DNA of 37,265 nt, taken from Pseudomonas phage Cline. The notes below the pieces were generated by a model, which was not told the origin of the DNA, did no database searches, and was given only the letters and a program-made list of their open reading frames with translations. Within the stretch, counting starts at the first letter, position 1. Every line of letters starts with the position of its first letter. The stretch lies in the sequence record PQ571160.1. The stretch is one strand, 5' to 3'. Shown piece after piece: positions 12,720-13,223 of this stretch. Made by a program: the position numbers and the translations under genes.

Positions 12720-13223
12720 TCAATAGCCATCCCAATCGATGCGGCGCCCTGTGGACACAACCTCCGGGGCGCCGAGGTCAATGCTTTTAACCCGAACAGA
12801 GGAACCACATGGATGACACTTCAAGACCGTGTAGTAGCCTTCGTCCCCCGGCTGGAGGATGGTCTTGACCGCCTTCTGATAGCAGTCGGCACATATGTAA
12901 TGCAGAGGTTCGGTGCCTTGAACCTCTGGCTTTATGCGATACACAAGTCCACCCGCTTCCGTCTGGTGGAGCTGGTAGCGCTCTTTCTCCTGTTCCCAGC
13001 GTTTGAACTGAGCAATTTCGGCTTCCAGCTCGCCTATGCGGCGGGTCAGCGTCGTCTGATCCGCGTGGGCGCTGTTCAGCTGGGATTGCAGCCCGAGCAG
13101 CACGCCGTTCAGTTCGACCACCTTGGTCGTTACAGCCGCATCCGTCTTGAGCGTGAGCATGCTCTGCGTAATGTCAGTGGCCGCCTTGATGCCGCCGTAG
13201 GCACCAGCAATCCAGTCCATCAT
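12720..13223 (-). CDS. Coiled-coil plus C-terminal zinc-ribbon protein, transcribed antisense to the late operon (moron-like).
   Basis: 167 aa from the ATG at 13223, with an AAGGAA ribosome-binding site 9 nt upstream. The long ORF 12720..13268 begins 15 codons further up. CxxC...CxxC (YICADCY...LKCHPCG). Heptad-like N-terminal half. Confidence 0.6.
   Translation of the reverse strand: MMDWIAGAYGGIKAATDITQSMLTLKTDAAVTTKVVELNGVLLGLQSQLNSAHADQTTLTRRIGELEAEIAQFKRWEQEKERYQLHQTEAGGLVYRIKPEVQGTEPLHYICADCYQKAVKTILQPGDEGYYTVLKCHPCGSSVRVKSIDLGAPEVVSTGRRIDWDGY

Follow-up and report, generated by a model that had tools for sequence, protein, structure and literature searches.

A probable Rip1-family anti-phage defence gene, antisense to the late operon, between the terminase genes of a Casadabanvirus

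Introduction

Pseudomonas phage Cline (PQ571160.1; 37 265 nt, the whole of which is here called the window) carries a 167-amino-acid open reading frame (ORF) on the minus strand (12720–13223), between the small terminase gene terS, which ends at 12718, and the large terminase gene terL, which starts at 13255. This raises the question of whether an ORF that runs against the late operon in which it lies is a gene at all and, if so, what its product does. An earlier note, made from the sequence alone, had described a coiled-coil and zinc-ribbon protein and had suggested a moron for superinfection exclusion or defence. Here we argue that the ORF is very probably a moron of a Casadabanvirus prophage, a Rip1-family gene for defence against phages that occupies the terS–terL slot, and we refer to it below as rip1.

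Results and discussion

The phage and its relatives

Casadabanvirus comprises Mu-like, pilus-dependent temperate siphophages of Pseudomonas aeruginosa, and by nucleotide identity the window belongs among these D3112/DMS3/JBD30-like phages. Positions 11500–14500 are 95–97% identical to D3112, DMS3, JBD30, MP42 and many other Casadabanvirus genomes, the best match being vB_PaeS_PcyII-40_PfII40a (96.9%), with D3112 at 96.7%. Translation confirmed the minus-strand ORF and its placement; its product is 99.4% identical to that of the orthologous D3112 orf25 and 88% identical to JBD30 gp30, also an orthologue. Both flanking genes are on the plus strand, terS (12218–12718) forming the left border of the slot and terL (13255–14910, with its ATG at 13255) the right, and their limits agree with the D3112 and JBD30 annotations. 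The terS product, a small terminase/DNA-binding protein, matches Pfam DUF1804 (E = 2.1e-62); the DUF1804 protein is named small terminase by Patel et al. (2024, Nat Commun). That every other gene from ner to the end of the window lies on the plus strand, as the earlier note had stated, holds by proxy only, from D3112, in which the c repressor gene (cI) and orf25 are the only minus-strand genes.

A protein of the Rip1 family

A profile search of the protein, one of the checks that had been suggested for it, led directly to a solved homologue. With the single sequence as query, phmmer matched PDB entry 9oox (E = 2.9e-20 over residues 3–143), and a profile of 28 homologues matched chain L of the same entry, ‘ring interacting pore 1 (Rip1)’, at E = 1.8e-33. 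This entry is a cryo-EM structure of Rip1 from phage HK446 bound to the small terminase of T6, and within the aligned stretch its chain sequence is that of HK446 gp37. The window protein is only ∼33% identical to this solved Rip1. The AF2 model of the window protein (pLDDT 82) has helices at residues 2–23 and 28–80, a beta/zinc-ribbon domain at 83–147 and a disordered tail, and Foldseek aligned it to 9oox_M with a probability of 1.00, a TM score of 0.86 (TMt) and an rmsd of 1.6 Å over 120 columns; besides 9oox, Foldseek returned no match in the PDB at E < 0.1. All of 28 diverse homologues retain four cysteines (C111, C114, C136 and C139), and the coiled coil and zinc ribbon first read from the sequence fit these cysteines and the modelled helices (residues 2–80). 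Residues 1–45 are rich in G/A/T/S, moderately hydrophobic and amphipathic. Over residues 1–30 the hydrophobic moment is ∼0.3, lower beyond, and the mean hydrophobicity 0.03–0.4, and HK446 residues 7–40 give similar values; such numbers would suit an amphipathic helix that lines a membrane pore, although they are not diagnostic.

The window protein is thus homologous to HK446 Rip1 in sequence and in predicted fold, and with HK446 gp37 and the Rip1 of a P. aeruginosa prophage (Patel et al., Nature 2026) it shares a length class of 164–167 amino acids, a helical N-terminus and a four-cysteine C-terminal half. The settings also correspond: the P. aeruginosa Rip1 gene occupies the terS–terL position of a Mu-like prophage, as here, and HK446 gp37 is antisense to its flanking lytic operon. 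What sets the window protein apart from the solved HK446 protein, apart from its low identity, is a C-terminal tail of the D3112 type. As far as sequence comparison can tell, the gene is already known: it falls in the published Rip1 family and differs very little from D3112 orf25.

Current annotation gives little hint of this. Scans of the rip1 product against Pfam and NCBIfam gave nothing, or sub-threshold zinc-ribbon noise, and PADLOC v2.0 gave no match, a miss that carries little weight because PADLOC v2.0 predates Rip1. The PHROGs match is to phrog_1244, ‘unknown function’, and every database record for the protein and its close relatives is named ‘hypothetical protein’. The main value of the identification therefore lies in annotation, with the names still uninformative and Pfam, NCBIfam and PADLOC v2.0 lacking a model: the label of Rip1-family defence gene can be given to D3112 orf25, JBD30 gp30 and the DMS3 homologues that hundreds of P. 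aeruginosa genomes carry, which bears on the choice of phages for therapy against lysogens. New biology is limited to small observations on slot polymorphism and allele mosaicism, described below.

A late-acting pore or a block to injection?

Rip1 comes from a P. aeruginosa prophage, where it has the terS–terL position (Patel et al., 2026, Nature 651:1060, doi 10.1038/s41586-025-10075-1; review, PMC13434031). [quoted passage not shown] An 11-mer of small terminase is ringed by 12 Rip1 monomers, with the N-terminal amphipathic helix lining the pore and the C-terminal half contacting the ring, and homologues are widespread in proteobacterial prophages (PMC13434031). A conference report, in which 12 Rip1 monomers cap 11 terminase subunits (PMC12908700), and a paper on Avs2, which cites Rip1 as a small-terminase sensor (PMC13601566), agree with this account.

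By analogy, rip1 would be driven in the lysogen by its own promoter, antisense to the late operon and co-oriented with the c repressor gene; we infer this step from the orientation of the gene, from its ribosome-binding site and from the deletion and expression experiments reported for the published Rip1. By itself the protein would be harmless. Once a second phage had reached late expression, its oligomeric ring proteins would draw in Rip1 by way of the zinc-ribbon half at its C-terminus; in Pseudomonas phages the reported trigger is the portal, in coliphages the small terminase. Twelve Rip1 copies would then surround the 11-mer, their N-terminal amphipathic helices would form a membrane pore, and the inner membrane would collapse before progeny mature, i.e. 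an abortive infection. How the window protein would be triggered, its stoichiometry, its pore and its effect in defence are all carried over from the Rip1 literature, and would hold to the extent that the analogy does.

Could the protein instead be a classical superinfection-exclusion protein, which blocks DNA injection at the envelope and forms no late-acting pore? Two labels point that way: JBD30 gp30 is listed as a phage-resistance moron that ‘blocks phage genome injection (Tsao et al. 2018)’ in Appendix Table S1 of the JBD30 structure paper (PMC11445458), and hkaP of HK620 is annotated ‘putative superinfection exclusion protein’. Both, however, are secondary or position-based only, whereas the model of the window protein lacks a signal peptide and a transmembrane segment, the solved homologue sits on a cytoplasmic small-terminase ring, and the escape mutants lie in the portal and small terminase, both of them late proteins (PMC13434031). 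We therefore consider a block to injection improbable, and favour a late-acting protein of the Rip1 type. The wording used for gp30 (PMC11445458) is itself in conflict with a late pore triggered by portal or small terminase (PMC13434031).

A moron slot between terS and terL

The slot (12719–13254) is a cassette hotspot across Casadabanvirus. When it was aligned among five phages, the left cassette border coincided exactly with the terS stop and the right one fell a few bases short of the terL ATG. Three alleles of rip1 occur in the slot (D3112/PfII40a, JBD30/DMS3 and LPB1/H70/PaMx73); in JBD24, JBD26, Spike and many CF/BR isolates it holds atab on the plus strand and tab on the minus strand. 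LESphi4 has a 258-aa plus-strand gene there (‘NinC/FAD synthetase-related’), Meltemi a 198-aa plus-strand gene, and in MP29 the slot is empty. Because relatives carry other cassettes in the slot, or none, rip1 is dispensable and mobile, i.e. a moron. The lysogeny-expressed moron for defence or superinfection exclusion proposed in the earlier note is supported both by a Rip1 homologue at the same terS–terL position and by the presence/absence pattern and cassette swapping at the slot.

In every other phage context examined, the homologue likewise runs against the adjacent lytic operon. Antisense homologues lie between N and cIII in the pL operon of HK620, HK630 and HK446, in the same terS–terL slot in the P. 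fluorescens phage VW-6B, and also in Mu-like RcWaterboi, Pelagibaca P1, EcoM-689R2, and PhiR29_2 (beside cI). HkaP of HK620 (as of HK630/HK629) is of the same family as the window protein (27% identity, tblastn E = 2e-6; phrog_1244) and is encoded, like it, by an antisense insertion in a lytic operon, but in a lambdoid/P22-like phage and at a different insertion site, between N and cIII; its ‘sie’ label derives from position only.

These distributions also bear on whether the product might serve the phage's own terminase, as an accessory factor for packaging its DNA or as a zinc-ribbon regulator of terminase expression, which would account for the terS–terL position. The location of the gene between the terminase genes, the binding of a family member to small terminase (9oox) and the zinc-ribbon motif are all in keeping with such a role. 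Yet the empty slot of MP29 and the unrelated genes that replace rip1 in JBD26, Spike, LESphi4 and Meltemi mark it as dispensable for packaging, its orientation is opposite to that of the late operon, and lambdoid and other Mu-like phages carry homologues in their pL or early regions, with no terminase gene anywhere near. A packaging or regulatory role is thus highly improbable, even more so than a block to injection, and a Rip1-type defence moron remains the preferred reading.

The best-described occupant of the slot is the Tab/anti-Tab pair (JBD26 gp31/gp30; Patel et al., Nat Commun 2024), which occupies the identical terS–terL position. Tab is also encoded on the minus strand; the gene has a promoter of its own, the prophage expresses it, and the product acts at a late stage against virion assembly of the invader. 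In contrast to the window protein, however, Tab is an unrelated protein of 83 amino acids that blocks tail assembly through the tape-measure protein, and self-immunity depends on a plus-strand anti-Tab gene. Such a gene would not fit in the window, where terS ends at 12718 and rip1 at 12720. We considered whether the window ORF is itself tab and rejected this: between the terS stop and the terL start the Spike/JBD26-type cassette cannot be aligned to the window, and the proteins differ in size. The combination that would identify Tab, a protein homologous to JBD26 gp31 (83 residues) and, accompanying it, a plus-strand anti-Tab gene that overlaps terS, was not found at the locus, and no plus-strand ORF lies within the slot. 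In VW-6B, a 66-aa ORF on the late-operon strand (3489–3689) lies between terS and the rip1 homologue, a position corresponding to that of anti-Tab in JBD26, and the window has no equivalent; this ORF could conceivably encode an anti-Rip1.

Coding capacity and start of rip1

Length alone proves nothing about an ORF such as this one, because long antisense ORFs are common in the window (GC ∼65%), those antisense to terL and to the portal gene reaching, for example, 400 and 463 aa. GC content falls to 0.56–0.59 at rip1, against 0.63–0.70 in the flanks. Compared with the 60%-identical LPB1 allele, the minus-strand frame has a dN/dS of 0.13–0.17, a ratio indicating that purifying selection acts on the ORF. 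Homologues of the 167-aa protein number 53 at E ≤ 0.001, ranging from 99% down to 32% identity, and nearly all are 148–175 aa long (a few are shorter or partial); by profile search, the family extends to 4143 clusters at 50% identity (E ≤ 1e-3). The GC dip, the dN/dS, the 53 homologues and the solved homologue together argue that the ORF is real. That it might be a non-coding shadow ORF of a GC-rich genome, the real feature being an intergenic spacer or an RNA element, could be suspected from the frequency of long antisense ORFs and from a 188-aa plus-strand ORF that also overlaps it, but this reading, which the earlier note had tied to loss of the frame in relatives, is already refuted by the low dN/dS in the minus-strand frame, by homologues of consistent length in related phages and a family of thousands, and by the solved homologue and confident fold prediction, and its probability is next to nil. 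An antisense ORF in a late operon, coupled with a dip in GC, suggests a defence moron, and in this case that logic seems to have found a true defence gene.

The reading frame of rip1 is open in the 5′ direction as far as a GTG at 13268. In the homologue alignment, all sequences from other genera begin MMD/MxD, and the start at 13223 is therefore the best supported. A Shine–Dalgarno-like AAGGAA (13231–13236, minus strand), the ribosome-binding site pointed out in the earlier note, can be read from the sequence 7 nt upstream of this ATG. At 13254–13257, the palindrome CATG supplies the terL ATG when read on the plus strand and, on the minus strand, a further ATG upstream of the rip1 start and in frame with it. 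Database annotations of 175–178 aa, which start at that upstream ATG, are probably 11 codons too long.

Inverted repeat and promoter

An inverted repeat (12709–12736) spans the stop codons of terS and rip1, and had been put forward as a possible bidirectional terminator. The repeat is present: its arms (12709–12720 and 12725–12736) are 12 nt each, 92% complementary and separated by a 4-nt loop, and they lie within the final codons of the two genes. The minus-strand (rip1) RNA folds here into a hairpin of 13 bp (−20.2 kcal/mol, z = −3.5) with UUCCUU after it, and only on that strand of the window is the hairpin significant. The terminator part of the proposal did not stand. There is no T-run, a terminator scan does not call the hairpin, and it is not conserved, being weak and not significant in D3112 (z = +0.48, plus strand) and absent in JBD30; we thus reject a conserved bidirectional terminator.

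A consensus scan for promoters and terminators on both strands of 12400–13700 returned no sites, and no sigma-70-like promoter 5′ of rip1; inspection of minus-strand positions 13224–13420 by eye showed weak −10-like hexamers only, and we claim no promoter from these. A search for lysogen RNA-seq that covers rip1 likewise turned up nothing usable. Since the divergent starts of rip1 and terL are only 31 nt apart, the rip1 promoter would have to lie largely in the 5′ coding sequence of terL. This part of terL is conserved even in the tab-carrying phages. Transcription of rip1 may collide with that of the late operon, as the earlier note had proposed.

Allele mosaicism

Between the window and JBD30 alleles, dS is 0.087 for codons 1–124 and 1.8 from codon 125 to the end. 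A sharp recombination breakpoint thus lies inside rip1, setting off 12720–12850 (codons ∼125–167). From about codon 125, the D3112-type tail of the window allele (…VKSIDLGAPEVVSTGRRIDWDGY) differs from the JBD30/DMS3 allele, and its terminus, DWDGY, is also seen in P. fluorescens phage VW-6B. Another arrangement occurs in three homologues (P0017, P0042 and P0046), which combine a different set of 75 N-terminal residues with a middle region like that of the window protein, P0017 additionally carrying the C-terminal tail of the window allele. The mosaic breakpoint suggests that the pore and sensor halves of rip1 are exchanged independently. With the C-terminal 40 residues diverging so sharply from those of the JBD30 allele, the trigger specificity of the window allele may also differ.

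A more speculative extension, which we put forward tentatively and think unlikely to hold in full, would join three elements: pore and sensor modules swapped independently, a range of recognized rings set by the tail, and self-immunity conferred by antisense orientation in place of an antidote gene. If so, the D3112-type tail would set a different range of portal or terminase rings from that of the JBD30/DMS3 allele, and upon induction of the resident prophage convergent transcription would lower rip1 expression, thereby providing the self-immunity.

Other features of the window

Complete records of the related phages H70, PaMx73 and LESphi4 begin at window position ∼286, so that positions 1–285 may be host flank or a variable phage end. 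Farther along, positions ∼18200–19500 match, at 99.5% identity, records in which genes for the anti-CRISPR AcrF2 and for a winged-HTH (aca1-like) protein are annotated, lying between gene G for virion morphogenesis and the head protease gene.
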